Shown piece by piece: positions 1 through 50,922 of a DNA stretch of 50,975 nt (positions are counted from its first letter, which is position 1; each line of letters starts with the position of its first letter). Source of the stretch: Candidatus Yanofskybacteria bacterium (GTDB taxonomy: Bacteria > Patescibacteriota > Minisyncoccia > 2-02-FULL-40-12 > GWA2-44-9); assembly GCA_003151795.1 (NCBI GenBank), contig PLYL01000022.1:1-50975 (forward strand), given 5' to 3'. A program made the position numbers and the translations under genes. The notes under the pieces were generated by a model, which saw nothing but the letters and a program-made list of their open reading frames with translations, was not told the DNA's origin and searched no databases.

Positions 1-5
1 GGCAG

Positions 6-95
6 AACCCCGAAAGAAAAACACCCTTTCCTTTTTCAAAAGAAATTTCACCCCCGCCAAATCAGAAATGCAAGGAGTGTTTTTCTTTCGGGGTT
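6..95. repeat. 19-bp stem hairpin upstream of LSR1
   Basis: aaccccgaaagaaaaacac (6-24) / gtgtttttctttcggggtt (77-95). Confidence 0.85.
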
Positions 96-157
96 GCCGA
101 GGCTCTGCGAGGCAGTGGCGGGACGATTCATTCTCGCTCAAAAAAAGTTCGAGCAAA

Positions 158-166
158 TGATATAAT
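158..166 (+). promoter_or_regulatory. Extended -10 promoter candidate for LSR1
   Basis: TGaTATAAT immediately upstream of the CCACCA core of the internal repeat. Confidence 0.55.
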
Positions 167-170
167 GACA

Positions 171-302
171 CCACCAAACGAAACATTGTCGGAATTAAGA
201 AAACGGAGCGATTTTGCGGGAGCCAAAATCGCGCTATCATTTTTTTCAAAACCCTTTCCGCCTACGGCGGAAGCCGTGAATTCCCAAAGCTCCCCCCAAT
301 TG
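171..302. repeat. 132-bp inverted copy of 1717-1848 (LSR1 3' end plus tRNA CCACCA)
   Basis: ccaccaaacgaaacattgtc...ctccccccaattg is the reverse complement of caattggggggag...gacaatgtttcgtttggtgg. Confidence 0.95.
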
Positions 303-1848
303 AAATCATGAAAGAACTCAAACCAAAATATTTTCTCTACGCGAGGAAATCAACAGAGGATGATGACCACCAGATAATGTCTATTGAGGCACAGCTTTTT
401 GAATTGCACGAATATGCGCGTAGAGAAAATCTTGAAATTCTTGAGGAATTTCAAGAGTCGAAAAGCGCAAAGAAACCGGGTCGTGAACTATTTAACGAAA
501 TGATGGCCCGCATTGAAAATATGGACGGCGTAGGCATCCTCGCGTGGCATCCAGACCGTCTTGCTCGCAATAGTGTCGACGGCGGGCGCATCATTTACGC
601 AGTAGACACGACCAAAATAGTTTCTTTACGCTTTCCGACATTTTGGTTTGAGCCAACTCCGCAAGGCAAATTTATGTTGCAGGTGGCGTTCGGACAGAGT
701 AAGTATTACAGCGATAATCTAGTTGAAAATATTACGCGTGGTATCCGCCAAAAAGTCCGTCGAGGCGAGTGGTTGGTGCGCGCTCCCTTTGGCTATGTGA
801 ATAATCCAAAAACGAGAAATATTGAACCTCACCCGACTAAATCTCGCATTGTGGTGAAAGCGTTTGAAGAATACGCCAAAGGGACGCACACCCTCGGCAC
901 TATCGCGGACTTTTTGGCGGATCACGGCGTGAGTACGAAAGGAACGCCACCTGCCAAAGCTTCCGTCGCTCGTATGCTCTCAAATCGTGTCTATCTCGGC
1001 TTTACATACCACAAGGGCGAGTATTACGACGGAAGCTTTGCGCCAATTATTTCTCCGACACTGTTTGAAGCAGTCCAAAAAATGCTTGCGAAAAAATCTC
1101 GCCCTCGCGTGCAAAAAGTACCGAACCATTTTCCATTTGCACAATTCGCTCGGTGCGGTGAGTGCGGAAGTATGATTACGGCTCAATATGCGACAAATCG
1201 TTTTGGTACTAAATATACTTACTATCGCTGTACCAAAAAGAAAGGTGTTTGTCATCAGCCGTATCTATCATCTTCCGCACTCATTTCGCAAGCAAAAAAT
1301 CTGCTTCAATCAGTGTCGCTTCCTCTTTCAGAAATTGAGAACATGGAAAAGCAAATTGACTTGTGGGACAAAGAGTCAATTTCCGAAAGAGGAAGTGTTG
1401 CCCAAAATCTTAAAACCAAACTTTCCGAAACGAAGGAGAAGCTGGACAAACTTGTTTCCATTTATCTTGACGGCGATATTGAACGCGAAATATATTTACA
1501 GCGAAAAGACCTTCTCCTTCGTCAGAAAGCAACGTTTGAGGAAAGTTTTAAGGATTTTGGGCAACAGAGAAAAAATTGGGTCGAACCCTTGCGGAGTTTC
1601 GTTTTGTCTTTGAGAGAAGCCGTTATTTTGGAAAAAAGCGAAAACTATTTCGCATGGAAAGAGTTTTTCCAAAAAATCGGCTCTAACCCTATTCTCAAAG
1701 ACAAAACGCTTTCATGCAATTGGGGGGAGCTTTGGGAATTCACGGCTTCCGCCGTAGGCGGAAAGGGTTTTGAAAAAAATGATAGCGCGATTTTGGCTCC
1801 CGCAAAATCGCTCCGTTTTCTTAATTCCGACAATGTTTCGTTTGGTGG
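171..1848. mobile_element. LSR integrative element 1 at the tRNA-Ala(GGC) 3' end; left part continues beyond the window start
   Basis: LSR gene reads into the antisense tRNA 3' end; 132-bp inverted repeat 171-302 / 1717-1848 ends at the tRNA CCACCA. Confidence 0.8.
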
Positions 1849-1864
1849 ACCGTACCGGACTTGA
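308..1864 (+). CDS. Large serine recombinase (resolvase, recombinase and Zn-ribbon domains plus coiled coil)
   Basis: YARKS catalytic motif, DRLARN, PFGY, CGECG...YYRC...C. Confidence 0.95.
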   Translation: MKELKPKYFLYARKSTEDDDHQIMSIEAQLFELHEYARRENLEILEEFQESKSAKKPGRELFNEMMARIENMDGVGILAWHPDRLARNSVDGGRIIYAVDTTKIVSLRFPTFWFEPTPQGKFMLQVAFGQSKYYSDNLVENITRGIRQKVRRGEWLVRAPFGYVNNPKTRNIEPHPTKSRIVVKAFEEYAKGTHTLGTIADFLADHGVSTKGTPPAKASVARMLSNRVYLGFTYHKGEYYDGSFAPIISPTLFEAVQKMLAKKSRPRVQKVPNHFPFAQFARCGECGSMITAQYATNRFGTKYTYYRCTKKKGVCHQPYLSSSALISQAKNLLQSVSLPLSEIENMEKQIDLWDKESISERGSVAQNLKTKLSETKEKLDKLVSIYLDGDIEREIYLQRKDLLLRQKATFEESFKDFGQQRKNWVEPLRSFVLSLREAVILEKSENYFAWKEFFQKIGSNPILKDKTLSCNWGELWEFTASAVGGKGFEKNDSAILAPAKSLRFLNSDNVSFGGPYRT

Positions 1865-1918
1865 ACCGGTGACCTCTTCGATGCCATCGAAGCGCTCTAC
1901 CAGCTGAGCTAACGGCCC
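1843..1918 (-). tRNA. tRNA-Ala(GGC)
   Basis: GGGCCGTTAGCTCAGCTGGTAGAGCG-CTTCG-ATGGCAT-CGAAG...GGTTCAAGTCC...GGTCCACCA; G3:U70 pair. Confidence 0.97.
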
Positions 1919-4774: not shown

Positions 4775-5452
4775 ATGCGCGTCGCGATTTTTGGGAACAA
4801 TAAAGCTGAAGCGGAAAATCTGGCCGAGAAGGCCGGCTTCACTTTGGCTGATGACAAGCTGGATTTTGTCGTCAGTTACGGCGGAGATGGCACGTTTATG
4901 AAATCAGAGTTCGCGTATCCAGGCGTGCCGAAAATAGTTTTGAAAGATAGCCAAATCTGCAAAGTCTGTTCGGCATTTCCGAACGATGAAGTGCTGGCCA
5001 AAGTCCGAGCGGGGAGCTATGAGATTAGACCGCTCATCAAACTTGAAGCCACCGCCAATGGCCGGGCTATCACCGCCATGAACGATATCATCGTCCATAA
5101 CTCCGACCCGCGCCATGGCATCCGGTATCAAATTTGGTCAGATGGCCGTCAATTCGGCGATACCATCATCGGCGACGGCGTCGTCGTGGCCACGCCGTTC
5201 GGTTCCACGGCCTACTACCGAAGCATCACCGACAGCTTCTTTGAAACCGGCCTCGGCTTGGCCTTCAACAACAGCACCGAGCAGATGGACCATGTCGTCC
5301 TTGATGACCAGAAGACTATCAAGATTAAAATCACCCGCGGTATGGTCGGTGTCTACGCCGATAATCAGGAAGAACATTTAAACCTAAAAGAAGATGACGA
5401 AGTGGTAATTAAAAAATCAGCTTCGGTCGCACAGTGGGTAATAGTGAAATAG
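4775..5452 (+). CDS. nadK: NAD(+) kinase
   Basis: GGDGT, ND, GDGVVVATPFGSTAY. Confidence 0.9.
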   Translation: MRVAIFGNNKAEAENLAEKAGFTLADDKLDFVVSYGGDGTFMKSEFAYPGVPKIVLKDSQICKVCSAFPNDEVLAKVRAGSYEIRPLIKLEATANGRAITAMNDIIVHNSDPRHGIRYQIWSDGRQFGDTIIGDGVVVATPFGSTAYYRSITDSFFETGLGLAFNNSTEQMDHVVLDDQKTIKIKITRGMVGVYADNQEEHLNLKEDDEVVIKKSASVAQWVIVK

Positions 5453-5462
5453 CTTAATAATT

Positions 5463-5652
5463 GGGCCTGTCGTAAAGTGGTATTATACGACATTCGTTCA
5501 CCCGCCCAAACTTTCCCCTGGGCCCATAGCTCAGCTGGTAGAGCGCGTCATTCGCATTGACGAGGCCGCCGGTTCGAATCCGGCTGGGTCCACAGGAAAG
5601 TTTAGGCGGGCAAGTTGCCGGGTCGGGAGTCCGATTCTCCCCAGGTCCACCA
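5463..5652 (+). tRNA. Interrupted tRNA-Ala-like gene (outer), with a roughly 115-nt insert in the anticodon loop
   Basis: 5' half GGGCCTG-TC-GTAA-AGTGGTA-TTAT-A-CGACA-TTCG; 3' half TGCCG-GGTC-GGGAG-TCCGATT-CTCCC-CAGGTCC-ACCA; G3:U70 pair. Confidence 0.75.
5520..5592 (+). tRNA. tRNA-Ala(CGC), nested inside the outer tRNA-like gene
   Basis: Canonical cloverleaf: GGGCCCA/TGGGTCC, CGTCA-TTCGCAT-TGACG, GGTTCGAATCC. Confidence 0.96.
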
Positions 5653-7119
5653 GAGAGGAAATTGCAAGTTTTTGGGCATAGGGCCGCCGCAGGCGGCCAC
5701 CAAATCGTAAGGAATTTTGGGCGAAAAAAGCAGTTGGCGATTCTGCAAAATGCAGTTCGAGCCGATATTTTTAAGAAATGTTGTCATTTCCGATTTGTTT
5801 TCAAATTCAAGCAGTTTAGAGGCTTGATTCAAGGACAAAACAAACTCACGAGCCGGTTCGAGCCAAGATAATCCTATTTGTTCAAAATCCGTAATTTTCT
5901 CGCCAAGCCCTACCTTTTGGATAACAAGGATTTCCTTTCTTACTTTGTAGTCATCGGCAGAAATGACCTCGTTAAGATATACGTCAAGAAGTTTTTGGAG
6001 TTTGGCCTCAATCTTGGTTAATTCTGTTTTGAAATTTTGAACAGTAGTTTTAGCTTCCTCTTTTGCTCGGCTTTCATCTTTTTCTAGCTCGGCTAAAACT
6101 TTCTTGGTGTCTTGGCTTGACAAAGAAACTTTTTGAAGAAACGACTTAACTTGTTTATATAGTTCTTCATCTCGCAAAAAATACTTTTCTTGGCACGGCC
6201 CTTTCTTTTTCGTGCACCGATAGTAAATATATTCTCTACCGCTTGGCTTGATTTTCTTTTCGGCTGTTATAGCTGCAGAACAAGGACATTTCATTAAGCC
6301 AAGAAAAGCAAAATTATGTTTCTTAATTTTTTGCGATTTTCCTTTTTCTCGCATGATCTCTTGTACTCTATCAAAAAGTTTCTTTGAAATAAGCGGCTCG
6401 TGAGTTCCTTGGAAAATTTCTCCTTTGTATTTCATCAGCCCTATATAAAAAACATTTTGGAGTATTTTAGGGACTTGCGAGATATACATACCTTTATCCA
6501 AATTGCTTTTGGTACTTACTCGCATATACCACTCGGCTAATTCTCGGAGGTTGTAATTTCCAGTGGCATAAAGCTCAAAAAGTTTTTTTACTTTGCGGGC
6601 TTTTTCTGTATTAACATCAATCCCGCGTGTCTTTGGATTATTGAGATAGCCGAGCGGTGCTTTGCTAGGCCAAACTCCGTTTCTCACTTTTTGTCTCATC
6701 CCACGAGTTACATTTTCACGTAGGGCGTCCACATAATATTTTGATTGGCCAAAAGCAATTTGGAGCATAAAAAGTCCTTGTGGCGTTGGTTCAAACCAAA
6801 ATGTTGGAAATTTCAACGCTTTAATCAAGCCGCGATCTATCATGTGAATTATTCTTCCGCCATCTACGGAATTACGAGCAAGACGGTCGGGATTCCACGA
6901 AAGTATGCCGTCCGCTTTTCCTCTCTCAATCAATGCCAACATTTCTGCGAATTTAATTCGCCCAGGTTCTTTGGCAGTTTTTGCCTCTTGAAGAGAGGCG
7001 ACGATTTCAAGTTTTTCTTTGGCGGCAAATTCTTTTAACTCAAAGATTTGGGCCTCAATACTCAAAATTTGTCTATCGTCATCTTCGGTGCTCTTGCGAG
7101 CGTAAAGTATATATTTCAT
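5602..7119 (-). CDS. Large serine recombinase
   Basis: YARKS, DRLARN, PLGY, CPC...YYRC...C, coiled coil; C-terminus reads into the antisense tRNA. Confidence 0.95.
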   Translation of the reverse strand: MKYILYARKSTEDDDRQILSIEAQIFELKEFAAKEKLEIVASLQEAKTAKEPGRIKFAEMLALIERGKADGILSWNPDRLARNSVDGGRIIHMIDRGLIKALKFPTFWFEPTPQGLFMLQIAFGQSKYYVDALRENVTRGMRQKVRNGVWPSKAPLGYLNNPKTRGIDVNTEKARKVKKLFELYATGNYNLRELAEWYMRVSTKSNLDKGMYISQVPKILQNVFYIGLMKYKGEIFQGTHEPLISKKLFDRVQEIMREKGKSQKIKKHNFAFLGLMKCPCSAAITAEKKIKPSGREYIYYRCTKKKGPCQEKYFLRDEELYKQVKSFLQKVSLSSQDTKKVLAELEKDESRAKEEAKTTVQNFKTELTKIEAKLQKLLDVYLNEVISADDYKVRKEILVIQKVGLGEKITDFEQIGLSWLEPAREFVLSLNQASKLLEFENKSEMTTFLKNIGSNCILQNRQLLFSPKIPYDLVAACGGPMPKNLQFPLWWTWGESDSRPGNLPA

Positions 7120-7152
7120 ATGGTTTTGATTAAAAATTTTCTTTTCCCAAAA

Positions 7153-7253
7153 TGCAGAATCGCCAACTGCTTTTTTCGCCCAAAATTCCTTACGATTTGG
7201 TGGCCGCCTGCGGCGGCCCTATGCCCAAAAACTTGCAATTTCCTCTCTGGTGG
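7153..7253. repeat. 101-bp inverted copy of 5647-5747
   Basis: tgcagaatcgcc...ctctggtgg is the reverse complement of ccaccagag...ggcgattctgca. Confidence 0.95.
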
Positions 7254-7338
7254 TCTATTCTTAAAGTAGTTCGGACGCATTTCGCCGCCAAGGGCGGCGG
7301 GGATCTGGCCAAAAATTCCGAACCGAAATTCTGAACTT
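7250..7338. repeat. 89-bp inverted copy of 8294-8382
   Basis: gtggtctattcttaaag...ttctgaactt is the reverse complement of aagttcagaa...ctttaagaatagaccac. Confidence 0.95.
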
Positions 7339-7446
7339 AAAAACTGCCAAAGAACCTGATAAAAATATCGGCTCGGACCGCATTTTAATTTTGGGAAAAG
7401 AAAATTTTTAATCATTTATTATTAAATCATTAAGCATATAATTTTT

Positions 7447-8229
7447 ATGTCTAACGAAGAATACAAACCAATACCCAAGGAGGTTACAGGCGCAGAAACA
7501 TCTATGCCTGCTGAGCATAGTGAGGCAAGAAGCAAAGATTACAAAACATACGACATTCCAAGACTCACACTAGATTTAACCAACGAACTTGAAACCAAGC
7601 TTATTGTCCCACTTGAAGAAGCTCGTCAAGTCAAGGCTGCTTTAGAATCACTCGAAGATCTTGCGAAGCGTGTTCCAATTAGAATCATCAAAAGTTCTTT
7701 TTCTGGCGGTAGTGGTCGTGCAGATCCTCATAACGAAGGTCCCGGCCCGTGGGCTCCTGAAACAGCAATTAGATACTTGGAATTAGAAGGTCCAGAAGTT
7801 GGATCCCTCAACGAACTTGCATCATCTCTTCGCTATCTAATTGTGGATTTTAACACCGCGAGGAAAGCTGCTGTATCAATTAAACAACAAGGTGGATCAG
7901 GGAAGAAGGCTTTTATTATGATACCTAATTCTGAAGAGAATGGCCTCTATGTAAATCTACATAAGGCCATAGATAAGAAGGGTATAATCGACCACTTTGA
8001 ACCAATAGCACAAGCCAAACTGGATAATGTCACTCAGGAGTGGATTCCACGACTTAGGTCTAATATAAAGAGTACTTTCTTAAAGGCAGTGGAGATTCTT
8101 CGAGAATCCGCTGCAAATCCATCAAGTTGGTCGGATTCGAGTGACCCCTCAACATTCCCCAAGGATCGTCCTGAAACTCTCTTGAGTTTAGCAAAGGAAA
8201 TTGAGGAAATGGAAAGACATATAAACTGA
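7447..8229 (+). CDS. Hypothetical protein, sole cargo of element 2
   Basis: 260-aa ORF with ATG start, divergent from the LSR; no recognised motif. Confidence 0.75.
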   Translation: MSNEEYKPIPKEVTGAETSMPAEHSEARSKDYKTYDIPRLTLDLTNELETKLIVPLEEARQVKAALESLEDLAKRVPIRIIKSSFSGGSGRADPHNEGPGPWAPETAIRYLELEGPEVGSLNELASSLRYLIVDFNTARKAAVSIKQQGGSGKKAFIMIPNSEENGLYVNLHKAIDKKGIIDHFEPIAQAKLDNVTQEWIPRLRSNIKSTFLKAVEILRESAANPSSWSDSSDPSTFPKDRPETLLSLAKEIEEMERHIN

Positions 8230-8479
8230 GTCTGGGGCCTTAGAGTTCAAATAAGAAGAGAATTTGCCGCCAAAGAAAAACTTGAAATTGTCAAAGTTCA
8301 GAATTTCGGTTCGGAATTTTTGGCCAGATCCCCGCCGCCCTTGGCGGCGAAATGCGTCCGAACTACTTTAAGAATAGACCACAACGTTGTCAACATAATT
8401 CATTGGAAGTGGATAAGTGTCTAGTGAAAATAGAGATCCCTAAATTAGGCCTTGTTTTTCCTTAGTTTTTAATGCTTAA

Positions 8480-9004
8480 ATATCTCTATATGCGACAGGA
8501 AAGCTAGCGTATATATCGGGGTCGTTCCATGTTCAGTCCAACAGTGCACGGCAGATTCTACGCGAACACGGAATTTCCTACGGTGACAACATTCGATCAA
8601 TCGTGCGCGCAGTCGTCGAAGACATCATCGGCCGAGGCTGGTCGGTGGTACTCGACGGCATGATGTTGGGGGAAGACGAACGTATGATCGTGCGCAACCT
8701 CGCCACCAAGTACAACGCCCTGTTCTCTTTCAACGCCATGATCTGCGATCCAAACCTGGCCGAAGAACGAGCGAGGAAACGATATGCGGACGGCAAGGAG
8801 TCAAGCTTTGAAGATTGGCGAGCCAGTGATCCGGAACAGTATTTCAAGGACATCCACAGCCGCACCAAGCTCGTGGAAGAACTGCTCGCCAAAATCCCGA
8901 CTGATCCGCTGGAACGGATCGGGATGATCGACAACAACGCCGGCGAGCAAGATCTGGTCAACTGGCTGCACCCGATCTGGAGAAACATTGCCAACCGACT
9001 GTAA
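8480..9004 (+). pseudogene. Possible 5'-degraded AAA_33/nucleotide-kinase-like gene
   Basis: GWSVVLDG and CDPNLAEERARKR lid-like segment; open frame extends to about 8480 without an ATG or intact P-loop. Confidence 0.45.
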
Positions 9005-9016
9005 ACCCAGAACTCC

Positions 9017-9046
9017 AAAATGGGGTCCGCCACGGACCCCATTTTT
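9017..9046 (+). terminator. Rho-independent terminator
   Basis: aaaatggggtccg-cca-cggaccccattttt. Confidence 0.8.
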
Positions 9047-9079
9047 TCTTTGGTTGAAATAGGCTAAAATACAGGACAC

Positions 9080-49178: not shown

Positions 49179-49345
49179 ACAAAGAAGAATTAAAACAAAT
49201 CATGATAAAACTGGTCGGGTTAGGCGAGGATAAAGACGAATTAGCCTACTGGCTTTATGTTTTTGATGATCTACCTGAAGAAAAACAAAAAGAAATAACA
49301 TCTAATTTTCAAGGTGAATTAAAGAAACTGTCTAGTACAACCTAA
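49175..49345 (+). CDS. Small 56-aa protein (absent from the ORF track)
   Basis: ATGA overlap; MNKEELKQIMIKLVGLGEDKDELAYWLYVFDDLPEEKQKEITSNFQGELKKLSSTT. Confidence 0.7.
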   Translation: MNKEELKQIMIKLVGLGEDKDELAYWLYVFDDLPEEKQKEITSNFQGELKKLSSTT

Positions 49346-49372
49346 AACCGCCCAGCTGGGCGGTTTTAGGTT
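49339..49372. terminator. Perfect 34-bp palindrome, probable terminator
   Basis: aacctaaaaccgcccagctgggcggttttaggtt. Confidence 0.75.
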
Positions 49373-49423: not shown

Positions 49424-50746
49424 ATGAACAATACAACCCAAGTGCCAATCGGGGCTATGGCCAAGGGAATACCAGCCCCCATAAAGGTCAGATATTGCCT
49501 GTATGCAAGAAAAAGCACCGAGTCAGAAGAACAGCAGATCCTCAGTATAGATAGCCAAATCAAGGAGATGCTGGCTATAGCCGAGCGTGACCATCTGGAA
49601 GTAGTAGAGATCAAGAAGGAATCCCACTCTGCCAAGGAAGCCGGACAACGACCAGTCTTCAATGAAATCGTGGATGAAATCAAGATCGGCAAATTCAATG
49701 GCATCCTGACCTGGGCGGCCGATCGTATCTCCCGAAACGCCGGAGACTTAGGCCGAATCGTCGATCTCATGGATAGCCAACAACTCATTGAAATCCGAAC
49801 CTATGGGCAGAAATTCACCAATAGCCCGAATGAGAAGTTTCTTCTTATGATTCTCGGGAGCCAAGCCAAGCTCGAGAACGACAACAAGGTCGTAAATGTA
49901 AAGCGAGGGCTAAGAGCCAGATGCGAGATGGGCTTGTGGCCATGTACTGCCCCGACCGGATATCTAAACAGCACCAGCAAGGAGAAGAGTTGTCATGTTG
50001 AGTTAGATCCCCACCGAGCACCCGTCATCAAGAAGATGTTTGAAAAGATAGCTTATGAAAAATACAGCGGCCGGAGATTACACGCTTGGCTCAAAGATGA
50101 ACTGAAATTCACGACTAAGAATGGCAAGCCACTTACAATCAGTAATATCTATCTGACTCTTCGCAATACCTTCTACTATGGTAGTTTTGAATATCCGAGA
50201 GGCGGAGGTCAGTGGTATACCGGCAAGCATACGCCCATTATTACTAAGGAATTGTTTGATGCCGTTCAAGCCCAGATGTCAGACTATGAACTCAAAGGAA
50301 GCCATAAGGAGTTTGCCTTCACGAAATTAATGACCTGCGGTCTCTGTGGCAGTGGCATTACCGCCGATGAGAAATTCAAGAAACAGCAGAATGGCAATCT
50401 CCATCGCTATGTCTACTATGGTTGCTCAAGATTCCAAAATAAGAATTGCAAATCCGGCTATATGCGAGAGGAAGATTTGATTGAACAACTAGCTGGTCTT
50501 ATGGACAAGATCGACTTGGACGAGATTGGCATAAAAGAACGAATCAAATCTGAAATCGAACGGCACAAGAAATTCCAATCAGGGCTTCTTGGTATCAGAG
50601 AAAAATCAATCAAAGTTGGCGATATTGATATCCGGAACTATGCTAAATATATACTAAGAGACGGGACGATATTGGAGAAGCGGGAGTTACTAACTTGTCT
50701 GAGGAGTAAGATAACGATGGCGAACAAAGAAATTAAAATCATCTAG
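49424..50746 (+). CDS. Large serine recombinase (short C-terminal region)
   Basis: YARKS, DRISRN, PTGY, CGLCG...YYGC...C. Confidence 0.94.
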   Translation: MNNTTQVPIGAMAKGIPAPIKVRYCLYARKSTESEEQQILSIDSQIKEMLAIAERDHLEVVEIKKESHSAKEAGQRPVFNEIVDEIKIGKFNGILTWAADRISRNAGDLGRIVDLMDSQQLIEIRTYGQKFTNSPNEKFLLMILGSQAKLENDNKVVNVKRGLRARCEMGLWPCTAPTGYLNSTSKEKSCHVELDPHRAPVIKKMFEKIAYEKYSGRRLHAWLKDELKFTTKNGKPLTISNIYLTLRNTFYYGSFEYPRGGGQWYTGKHTPIITKELFDAVQAQMSDYELKGSHKEFAFTKLMTCGLCGSGITADEKFKKQQNGNLHRYVYYGCSRFQNKNCKSGYMREEDLIEQLAGLMDKIDLDEIGIKERIKSEIERHKKFQSGLLGIREKSIKVGDIDIRNYAKYILRDGTILEKRELLTCLRSKITMANKEIKII

Positions 50747-50750
50747 CTGA

Positions 50751-50796
50751 AAGCAAAGGAAAACCCATCAAATATTCGATGGGTTTTCCTTTGCTT
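50751..50796. terminator. Terminator hairpin between LSR3 and tRNA-Arg
   Basis: aagcaaaggaaaacccatc / gatgggttttcctttgctt. Confidence 0.8.
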
Positions 50797-50850
50797 GACT
50801 CAACCGAACCGGTGTCGCCTTGACCCCGTTCGGTCGGTCTCACATGCCTG

Positions 50851-50922
50851 TGCGCCCGGAGGGAATCGAACCCCCACCAACAGCTTCGAAGGCTGCTGCT
50901 CTATCCGTTGAGCTACGGGCGC
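50851..50922 (-). tRNA. tRNA-Arg(TCG)
   Basis: GCGCCCGTAGCTCAACGGATAGAGCA-GCAGC-CTTCGAA-GCTGT...GGTTCGATTCC...CGGGCGCA. Confidence 0.96.

Follow-up and report, generated by a model that had tools for sequence, protein, structure and literature searches.

A 2.7-kb integrative element at positions 5647-8382 of a 50,975-nucleotide (nt) stretch of a Candidatus Yanofskybacteria genome (GenBank assembly GCA_003151795.1, contig PLYL01000022.1, positions 1 to 50,975; this whole stretch is called the window below) is composed of a large serine recombinase gene, one cargo open reading frame (ORF) and a 288-nt intergenic segment, here called the staple, almost every base of which is complementary to another part of the same element. 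The tiling of complementary segments is conserved and covaries among relatives, follows DNA-like pairing rules and occurs in one fixed orientation. We propose that the fold is selected in single-stranded DNA (ssDNA), where it would splint both termini of the element into a duplex copy of the joined ends (attP), a reading that we find plausible and to which we give somewhat less than an even chance. The mechanism, including a single-stranded stage and the action of the recombinase or of host enzymes on the folded substrate, is one that we infer.

Complementarity of the staple with the rest of the element

Pairings were located by a repeat search of window positions 5000-9000 (Table 1). The staple adjoins the recombinase start on its upstream side. 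An earlier inspection of the same letters, referred to here as the sequence-only reading, had claimed six long-range pairings, and the search recovered all of them at the coordinates given there; epsilon, described as 34 nt with 33 matches, proved to be longer (37 nt, 95%, 7000-7036 with 8256-8292). The near-complete pairing claimed for 7127-7414 was also found, with 286 of the 288 bases lying in helices and only 7359 and 7387 outside them, and the helices abut as described, with gaps of 0-1 nt. The 17-nt hairpin claimed at 6983-6999 (eta) forms 6 base pairs (bp) and carries compensatory changes in 29 relatives. To these we add a helix of 5774-5788 with 6932-6946, which abuts gamma' and, together with the kappa and gamma helices, closes a third junction. 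In 1054 segments of 1.4 kb taken across the whole genome, exact inverted repeats of at least 11 nt numbered 0.83 per segment on average, with a 99th percentile of 6. This background, together with the presence of the same tiling in a paralogue of 64% identity, excludes chance as the origin of the arrangement.

The same 4 bases stand at the two ends of the element (5647-5650 and 8379-8382), and their complement, GTGG, is found at 7250-7253. Because the two long repeats overlap at this complement of the terminal core, the segment 7153-7338 represents an inverted circle junction: it is an inverted, 100% identical copy of the joined element ends (attP), which on the minus strand leads from the right end into the left end. 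The termini themselves (5647-5747 and 8294-8382) are not mutually complementary, each pairing with its own internal copy, so that the terminal inverted repeats that define insertion sequences are missing.

Folded alone as ssDNA, the staple reached -59.7 kcal/mol (z = -5.4, with none of 100 shuffles as good), and the alpha stem closed. Each arm of the attP copy also contains a G+C-rich local palindrome (7202-7218 and 7283-7299), the two lying symmetrically, each about 40 nt away from the core. In the ssDNA fold of the staple both become hairpins, and similar palindromes occur in the arms of other paralogues.

We also considered the staple as a protein gene. A 99-codon frame (7415-7116, minus strand) coincides with the whole of the staple and overlaps the recombinase start, and about 100 open codons are present in most relatives, the distance from the stop of this frame to the recombinase start ranging from -8 to 270 nt. 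The staple was nevertheless treated as non-coding, because the peptide motifs are reverse complements of recombinase codons and the frames differ between elements; the open frame probably follows from the reverse copying of coding sequence. Promoter motifs gave 6 matches against 5.1 ± 2.2 expected, which is the level of chance, and terminator matches were likewise at chance level.

Conservation, covariation and orientation of the pairings

The genome (766 kb in 25 contigs) holds five recombinases of the element's family, with 41-58% protein identity to the window copy, and in all five members a long near-perfect repeat brackets the recombinase gene, several of them at contig ends. A paralogous element on contig C2, with 64% DNA identity to the window element, retains all six helices. 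Four of them are 100% complementary (106, 34, 28 and 20 nt), and the other two measure 114 nt (99%) and 23 nt (96%). Alpha, gamma and kappa have other sequences there than in the window element.

The epsilon segment shows a further pattern of its own. It is 97-100% identical between the window element and the C2 element (L002, 2743-2776 and 3901-3934) despite the overall identity of 64%, and it is near-invariant at synonymous sites in many relatives. Its conservation seems to exceed what a pairing constraint alone needs.

Pattern matching in species-representative genomes, one per species, gave 599 stretches, of which 581 were confirmed as relatives; a viral contig collection contained only 5. 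The best 80 loci were nearly all from metagenome-assembled genomes (MAGs) of Patescibacteria, and the architecture was found on contigs of 0.77 Mb (L039), 0.92 Mb (L091) and 1.8 Mb (L055). Among 45 loci with enough flank, 34 possess the bracketing repeat, whose copies are 100% identical in 17 and at least 98% identical in 26; among the 11 loci in which it was missed, several reflect the threshold used or the position of the repeat. A helix census was made on 37 loci having both the bracketing repeat and enough upstream flank. Helix xi was present in 25, gamma in 24, epsilon in 19, alpha in 18 and kappa in 18, and all six helices abut within 6 nt in 11 loci. Within an element the arms were 93-100% complementary; the same arm compared between elements was 52-80% identical. 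Short helices without covariation in relatives, named beforehand as the outcome that would count against the idea, are thus not what we observed. The sequence-only reading had held that simple duplication does not give this tiling, and the complementarity kept with changed arms in the 64%-identical paralogue and in many relatives bears it out: simple duplication did not leave this tiling behind, and its complementarity is constrained.

The constraint is wider than that reading had seen, with conserved, nested helices throughout the recombinase gene. Intragenic helices were counted as exact inverted repeats of at least 10 nt, excluding the terminal arm, with synonymous-codon shuffles as controls. 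The five paralogous coding sequences (CDSs) contain 9-17 such repeats versus 0.9-1.6 in 200 shuffles, and control genes (the other recombinase family, uvrD, an ORF of 477 amino acids (aa) and the cargo ORF) contain 0-2. Over 70 family CDSs the mean was 9.9 repeats versus 1.36 after shuffling, and 65 of the 70 exceeded all 20 of their shuffles. The cargo arcs of 24 elements had a median of 1.74 inverted repeats per kb, near background, and the recombinase gene 6.77; in the window the cargo ORF holds 1 inverted repeat of at least 10 nt, versus 9-10 in the recombinase gene.

Across 76 CDSs we found 816 helices, many of which fall into clusters at homologous positions. A helix at aa 248~331 occurs in 65 of these CDSs with 30 distinct arm sequences, and the position of the window helix 6121-6136 / 6371-6386 pairs in the same number. 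Further helices lie at aa 361~413 (47 CDSs, 39 arm sequences), 243~418 (34 CDSs, 23 arm sequences) and 60~447 (23 CDSs). The helix of 5774-5788 with 6932-6946 is also a conserved column helix, present in 23 of the 76. Singletons make up 167 of the 284 position clusters. Covariation was assessed on an alignment of 29 CDSs, in which 97 pairs were voted by at least 5 sequences, all of them mutually nested. These pairs were formed in 65.6% of cells, versus 59.9 ± 0.4% in shuffled alignments (0 of 500 reached the observed value) and 36-46% in slid controls, and 62 of the 97 showed changes on both sides, versus 47 ± 3.2 after shuffling (0 of 500). The eta hairpin gave a similar picture in 29 relatives, with 78.2% of cells paired (65.6 ± 2.0% shuffled, 0 of 500; 26-44% slid) and 27 double-change cells versus 9.9 ± 3.9.

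The nature of the mismatches distinguishes between DNA and RNA pairing. In the helices of 80 loci we counted 47 G·T mismatches on the sense strand, 44 on the other strand and 62 transversions. Over 172 conserved column pairs in the 76 CDSs, Watson-Crick combinations accounted for 54% (21-28% in slid controls), G·T for 8% and 9% on the two strands, not above the slid controls, and other combinations for 29%; at least 2 Watson-Crick pair types occurred in 109 of the 172. In the account given in PMC6993869, G·T is near neutral in ssDNA-virus structures and G·U is strongly maintained in RNA structures. The pairing here is strictly Watson-Crick, with G·T unfavoured on either strand, and points to DNA rather than RNA. 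The earlier proposal of a single-stranded DNA or RNA fold is thus narrowed towards DNA by the strand-symmetric neutrality of G·T, and its RNA half is disfavoured.

The orientation of the repeats is equally regular. Comparison of the upstream region with the CDS in 45 loci gave 101 inverted and 5 direct short matches, the direct ones being confined to 4 loci. Of 32 loci with flank, 23 have the cargo bracket on the 5' side of the recombinase, and it is on the 3' side in 0 of 40. Integration therefore does not use the internal attP copy, despite its identical sequence. Only the pairing-competent orientation was found, and the arrangement is fixed.

Contigs from two runs, X5 and X6, belonging to two independent peat studies, contain a flipped join of 7250-7486 to 8383 onward. 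Contigs from the probable source sample agree with the window in the orientation of the cargo arc. The assembler word size, which we take to be 31, is exceeded by the 89-nt repeat, so that the flipped contigs are possibly graph-path artefacts; the joins reflect either a real inversion isomer or an artefactual path through this repeat.

Insertion site, gene content and neighbouring features

The recombinase has the Pfam domains Resolvase (PF00239, 9.6e-21, residues 4-150), Recombinase (PF07508, 1.1e-12) and Zn_ribbon_recom (PF13408, 9.8e-06, 26.3 bits for a cut-off of 25.3). Its catalytic motif, R8 K9 S10 T11, which includes the nucleophilic serine, is unchanged across the five paralogues, and the closest solved structures are those of SPbeta SprA/YokA (9dxh) and the A118 integrase (4kis). 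The recombinase stop codon lies in the host flank, and the reading frame therefore spans the left attachment site. The cargo ORF (7447-8229) gave no Pfam match above cut-off, no PHROG match and no informative Atlas look-alike. Family searches and look-alike comparison recognised no candidate directionality factor in the element, and Pfam and PHROG searches recognised in it no relaxase, conjugation, Rep, coat/capsid or morphogenesis gene. The element has every testable feature of large-serine-recombinase integrative elements.

The displaced tRNA-Ala half at the left end is 86% identical to the 3' part of tRNA-Ala(cgc) in a genome of the same genus (G005). In the same-genus genome the order is NAD kinase, tRNA-Ala(cgc), UvrD, with about 40 nt between tRNA and UvrD; here this distance is 3486 nt. 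The exact empty site was not recovered from these comparisons, the right flank being unconserved as DNA against 30 relatives and the UvrD synteny marking only a tRNA-linked hot spot. Between the element and uvrD, 697 nt (8383-9079) have no counterpart in the same-genus genome. This stretch and the displaced tRNA half, which follows the intact tRNA-Ala by about 20 nt, may be remnants of earlier hot-spot insertions.

Similar targets recur in the family. A tRNA gene on the opposite strand stands at the recombinase-proximal terminus in 44 of 50 loci, mostly with its 3' end overlapping the element by a few bases. The target tRNAs belong to eleven isoacceptor types, most commonly Gln (13) and Ser (12), and the crossover core across elements is a 0-10 nt overlap. 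Different elements have unrelated cargo ORFs: at 1e-5, 41 of the 42 that were compared, drawn from 22 elements, are singletons.

Table 1. Complementary segments, genes and attachment-site features of the element (window positions; a prime marks the partner arm of a helix)
Feature	Positions	Strand	Partner or basis
tRNA-Ala(cgc), intact; element starts 54 nt 3' of it	5520-5593	+	ARAGORN
Large serine recombinase, 505 aa	5602-7119	-	Pfam domains
tRNA-Ala 3' half, displaced; last bases ..CCAC are the left crossover core	5615-5650	+	Sequence
beta', left terminal arm (P' side), codes for recombinase C-terminal tail	5647-5747	+	Pairs with 7153-7253, 101 nt, 100%
gamma', within recombinase 3' coding region	5747-5773	+	Pairs with 7360-7386, 27 nt, 93% (25/27)
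H', arm of helix enclosing most of the CDS	5774-5788	+	Pairs with 6932-6946, 15 nt, 93%
Arm of most conserved intragenic helix	6121-6136	+	Pairs with 6371-6386, 16 nt, 100%; 81.5% of cells paired
Intragenic helix arm	6497-6512	+	Pairs with 6749-6764, 16 nt, 100%; aa 121~208, 14 CDSs
H, partner of H', 15 nt from kappa'	6932-6946	+	Pairs with 5774-5788
kappa', within recombinase 5' coding region	6963-6982	+	Pairs with 7339-7358, 20 nt, 100%
eta, local 6-bp hairpin, 17 nt, between kappa' and epsilon'	6983-6999	+	Sequence
epsilon', within recombinase 5' coding region	7000-7036	+	Pairs with 8256-8292, 37 nt, 95%
alpha, staple-closing stem arm	7127-7153	+	Pairs with 7388-7414, 27 nt, 100%
beta, internal left-end copy, reverse complement of 5647-5747	7153-7253	+	Repeat search
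Internal core GTGG, common to beta and xi arms	7250-7253	+	Repeat overlap
xi, internal right-end copy, reverse complement of 8294-8382	7250-7338	+	89 nt, 100%
kappa, staple copy of recombinase codons, partner 6963-6982	7339-7358	+	Repeat search
gamma, staple copy of recombinase 3' codons, partner 5747-5773	7360-7386	+	Repeat search
alpha', partner of 7127-7153	7388-7414	+	Repeat search
Cargo ORF, 260 aa, without recognisable family	7447-8229	+	Pfam, PHROG
epsilon, recombinase-codon copy at far end of cargo arc, partner 7000-7036	8256-8292	+	Repeat search
xi', right terminal arm (P side), ends in right core 8379-8382	8294-8382	+	Repeat search

A second element of the family occupies window positions 1-1918. 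Its recombinase (323-1864, plus strand) has 47.5% protein identity to that of the first element (tblastn) and is bracketed by a 132-nt, 100% identical repeat (171-302 and 1717-1848), the outer arm of which overlaps the 3' end of tRNA-Ala(ggc) (1843-1918). The contig begins within this element, and its staple and cargo are consequently cut off. Just outside the left end of the C2 element there are three 41-nt direct repeats spaced by about 110 nt (L002 1026-1285; C2:21626-21885), and the C2 and C15 elements have about 20 nt of left flank in common. These flank features suggest a common non-tRNA or degenerate target.

Only one other region of the genome has a comparable inverted-repeat density, C20:18200-20300 (L009), where a short AT-rich self-complementary motif is repeated many times within and next to ORFs of 808 and 183 aa. 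We considered an rRNA-like identity for this 18-20 kb region of C20 and discarded it, as Rfam gave no match; the region is unrelated to the element. A different, shorter recombinase family is present in three copies (window 49487-50563, C2:14471-15505 and C15:23906-24940), which gave matches of 35-36% identity across about 345 aa and contain 0-1 intragenic repeats, showing no excess. The window copy lies near tRNA-Arg(tcg) (50850-50922) and local palindromes (49339-49372 and 50751-50796).

The proposed fold, its rivals and known systems

If the element exists as ssDNA, of either strand, the staple loop would pair over its full length with four distant segments, two of them the termini and the other two in the 5' and 3' portions of the recombinase gene. 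Closed by alpha, the loop would pair in turn at gamma (27 nt), kappa (20 nt), the right terminus (89 nt) and the left terminus (101 nt), and a four-cornered duplex ring of about 237 bp would result. From the first corner the alpha stem would leave, from the second the long-range helix with the folded recombinase gene, and from the third epsilon and eta. At the fourth corner the two termini would abut on the staple, making a perfect duplex attP from one strand with its ends held in register. The pairs cross, as in a pseudoknot, which could form if the terminal arms wind on as free ends or if alpha closes last. Such a fold would protect the strand and supply a substrate for circularisation or recombination. 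Candidate sources of the ssDNA are competence-imported DNA and template strands exposed at replication. Insertion of a single strand would yield the order that we observe, namely terminus, recombinase arc, inverted attP, cargo arc and terminus.

Several points weigh against this proposal. Serine recombinases are known only to act by concerted cleavage of both strands at duplex sites; concerted cleavage of a hairpin attP would leave hairpin-capped chromosome ends, and the chemistry of an ssDNA route is thereby left unexplained. Perfect pairing of the arms extends over about 190 bp, far beyond what a recombinase site needs, and the arms have none of the mismatches or extrahelical bases by which one strand is selected in the phage CTXφ and in integron attC sites. 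Perfect arms could also be kept by gene conversion, or could merely reflect recent insertion, without any selection of a fold. The most distant family members in the helix census keep only the two long pairs. Within the recombinase gene, RNAalifold on 29 diverse CDSs gave only 24 consensus pairs, 1 of them compensatory, and about one third of the cells in voted helices are unpaired, so that the intragenic fold must be variable rather than a single rigid structure. The helices were derived from the same sequences on which they were tested, which inflates the contrast with slid controls, and the covariation statistics are not phylogeny-corrected, related sequences being able to beat shuffles without structure. 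The genome encodes ComEC (188 bits) and DprA (254 bits); these proteins are common, matches being present in 10 and 11 of 14 control genomes respectively, and they provide only a permissive context for ssDNA import. Neither a single-stranded nor a circular form of the element was seen, the k-mer contigs examined including no circle-junction or empty-site contig; such contigs cannot show absence.

Two kinds of duplex-level role would dispense with a single-stranded stage: the internal attP may be a binding site on duplex DNA, an operator or decoy by which the recombinase would repress its own gene or be kept inactive, or the repeats may form an inversion switch, identity being kept through concerted evolution by gene conversion. 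Some observations agree with this. The internal junction copy lies about 30-130 nt from the recombinase start in every complete element, half of the 34 bracketed loci have long arms that are 100% identical, as frequent conversion predicts, the X5 and X6 contigs of the two independent studies join a flipped cargo arc to the right flank, and direct short matches do exist in 4 of 45 loci. Free inversion, however, predicts similar isomer frequencies, whereas we counted 101 versus 5 and 23 versus 0. Moreover, a protein site needs tens of bases where about 190 are present, conversion is not expected to keep arms of 10-37 nt that are up to 1.2 kb apart, and neither an operator nor a switch explains the nested, covarying helices of the CDS or the exact abutment of the short copies. 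We consider a duplex-level role unlikely. An RNA fold, in which the staple would be the 5' leader of the recombinase messenger RNA (mRNA), pairing with the 5' and 3' parts of the coding region, and in the circle also with the far end of the element, so as to limit translation or set mRNA stability, and in which the intragenic helices would be mRNA structure, conflicts with the mismatch data, as G·U-compatible mismatches are unfavoured (47 versus 44, with 62 transversions; columns 8% versus 9%). The staple does lie between the divergent cargo gene and the recombinase start, making a leader possible, and all staple-pairing segments except the right terminus share one transcription unit. Weak promoter-like hexamers can be recognised on the recombinase strand at 7411-7382 and 7453-7426, but promoter-like matches as a whole are at the chance level given above. 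The 89-nt right arm falls outside the recombinase transcript when the element is integrated, and a 101-bp perfect intramolecular RNA duplex is an expected substrate of RNase III. We find this explanation very improbable.

The repeats might instead be by-products, scars of template switching or fold-back synthesis inherited from a family ancestor, which would seem conserved only since the elements are young and related. Each junction set does look like two reciprocal products and one retained substrate, the arm mismatches look neutral (91 transitions and 62 transversions), and the kappa-gamma join equals the recombinase gene minus the H stem-loop, the loss beginning and ending precisely at the foot of the stem, as expected of a polymerase that jumps over a hairpin. 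Against this, the short helices remain 93-100% complementary with differing sequences at 40-55% divergence of the recombinase protein, where a neutral repeat of 20-37 nt would have decayed, and the intragenic helices recur at homologous positions with many distinct arm sequences. Template switching would itself need the fold to form in ssDNA in vivo. That the repeats are scars of this kind is, in our view, quite improbable. An assembly artefact, in which reads from an excised circle were mis-joined with reads from the integrated form, was rejected. The genome is a metagenome assembly and contigs often break at repeats, but the architecture is found in five paralogues of this genome and in dozens of independent assemblies, including contigs of 0.77-1.8 Mb, and contigs from four runs match the window base for base where they cover it. 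A mis-joined circle junction would, furthermore, be neither inverted nor flanked by copies of recombinase codons.

A more far-reaching form of the proposed selection in ssDNA, which we regard as doubtful, is that these are the first mobile elements to pair a serine recombinase with a self-folding ssDNA intermediate, such that one imported or displaced strand would suffice to circularise or integrate, the splint consisting of the inverted attP and three guide segments. In the same tentative reading the recombinase gene would have been shaped codon by codon as a scaffold, and the element would represent a natural DNA-origami transposition intermediate and a transformation route in ultra-small Patescibacteria.

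Large serine recombinases, which are major tools of genome engineering, are regarded as enzymes that act strictly on duplex DNA and at simple sites. In this abundant family, co-evolution for self-complementarity at the level of DNA has involved the recombinase gene, the region upstream of it and the ends of the element. If the fold does act in ssDNA, the principle known from CTXφ and integrons would reach serine recombinases, hint at how small elements spread among Patescibacteria and offer a natural design for integrating single-stranded donor DNA. Whatever the mechanism, constraints overlap in an unusual way in a protein gene that contains about 10 long-range DNA helices, conserved and covarying, and the repeats of these elements account for many contig breaks in Patescibacteria assemblies.

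The element resembles the large serine recombinase systems phiC31, Bxb1, A118, SPbeta SprA, Tn4451 TnpX and SCCmec Ccr in its domains and catalytic serine motif, and likewise in its short core, its site-specific insertion at one gene class and the position of the recombinase gene at one end. It differs in its very small size (2.7 kb), its single variable cargo gene and the lack of a recognisable directionality factor. A second, inverted, full attP inside the integrated element is undescribed for large serine recombinase elements in the literature searched. In the same literature we found no description of recombinase-codon copies flanking an attP copy and cargo, nor of a recombinase gene saturated with conserved inverted repeats. 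A survey of inoviruses that names hosts of the Candidate Phyla Radiation (CPR) and serine recombinases does not, in the portion of that source considered, contain this architecture (PMC6813254).

Among systems with inverted sites, the yeast 2-micron plasmid (Flp/FRT) is similar in that the circular element would hold two inverted, identical sites dividing two arcs. The 2-micron plasmid exists as two freely interconverting isomers. In the present family, by contrast, one arrangement is nearly exclusive (101 versus 5; 23 versus 0) and two isomers are not what is seen; the plasmid also has neither short tiling helices nor an intragenic fold. The ssDNA viruses show the same pattern as the element, with conserved pairing within coding regions and G·T not selectively maintained. 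They package ssDNA genomes, whereas the element is chromosomal and no capsid or Rep gene was recognised in it. Integrons are comparable in their folded single-strand recombination sites and in combining a conserved platform with unrelated single-gene cargoes. Integron attC sites are hairpins, short and imperfect, in which extrahelical bases determine the strand used by the tyrosine recombinase IntI; the element, in contrast, has perfect arms of about 100 nt, one cargo and its own recombinase per element, and a pairing that spans the chassis.

The closest logic is that of CTXφ and IMEX, in which inverted att copies on one strand can pair into a duplex site, as they can in the element at 100% identity. 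According to PMC3089051, two inverted att-like sites fold in the ssDNA genome of CTXφ and unmask attP(+), one strand exchange followed by replication completes the integration, the integrated form keeps the att sequences, and integrons also use a single-stranded intermediate. CTXφ is a filamentous phage with a known ssDNA genome and a local, imperfect (forked) hairpin of about 150 nt, recombined by the host tyrosine recombinases XerC and XerD through one strand pair. The element has its own serine recombinase only, and a perfect duplex of about 190 bp whose arms, separated by 1-1.4 kb, are kept together by additional helices; its ssDNA stage is one that we infer. The single-stranded route, if real, would be categorically new for serine recombinases.

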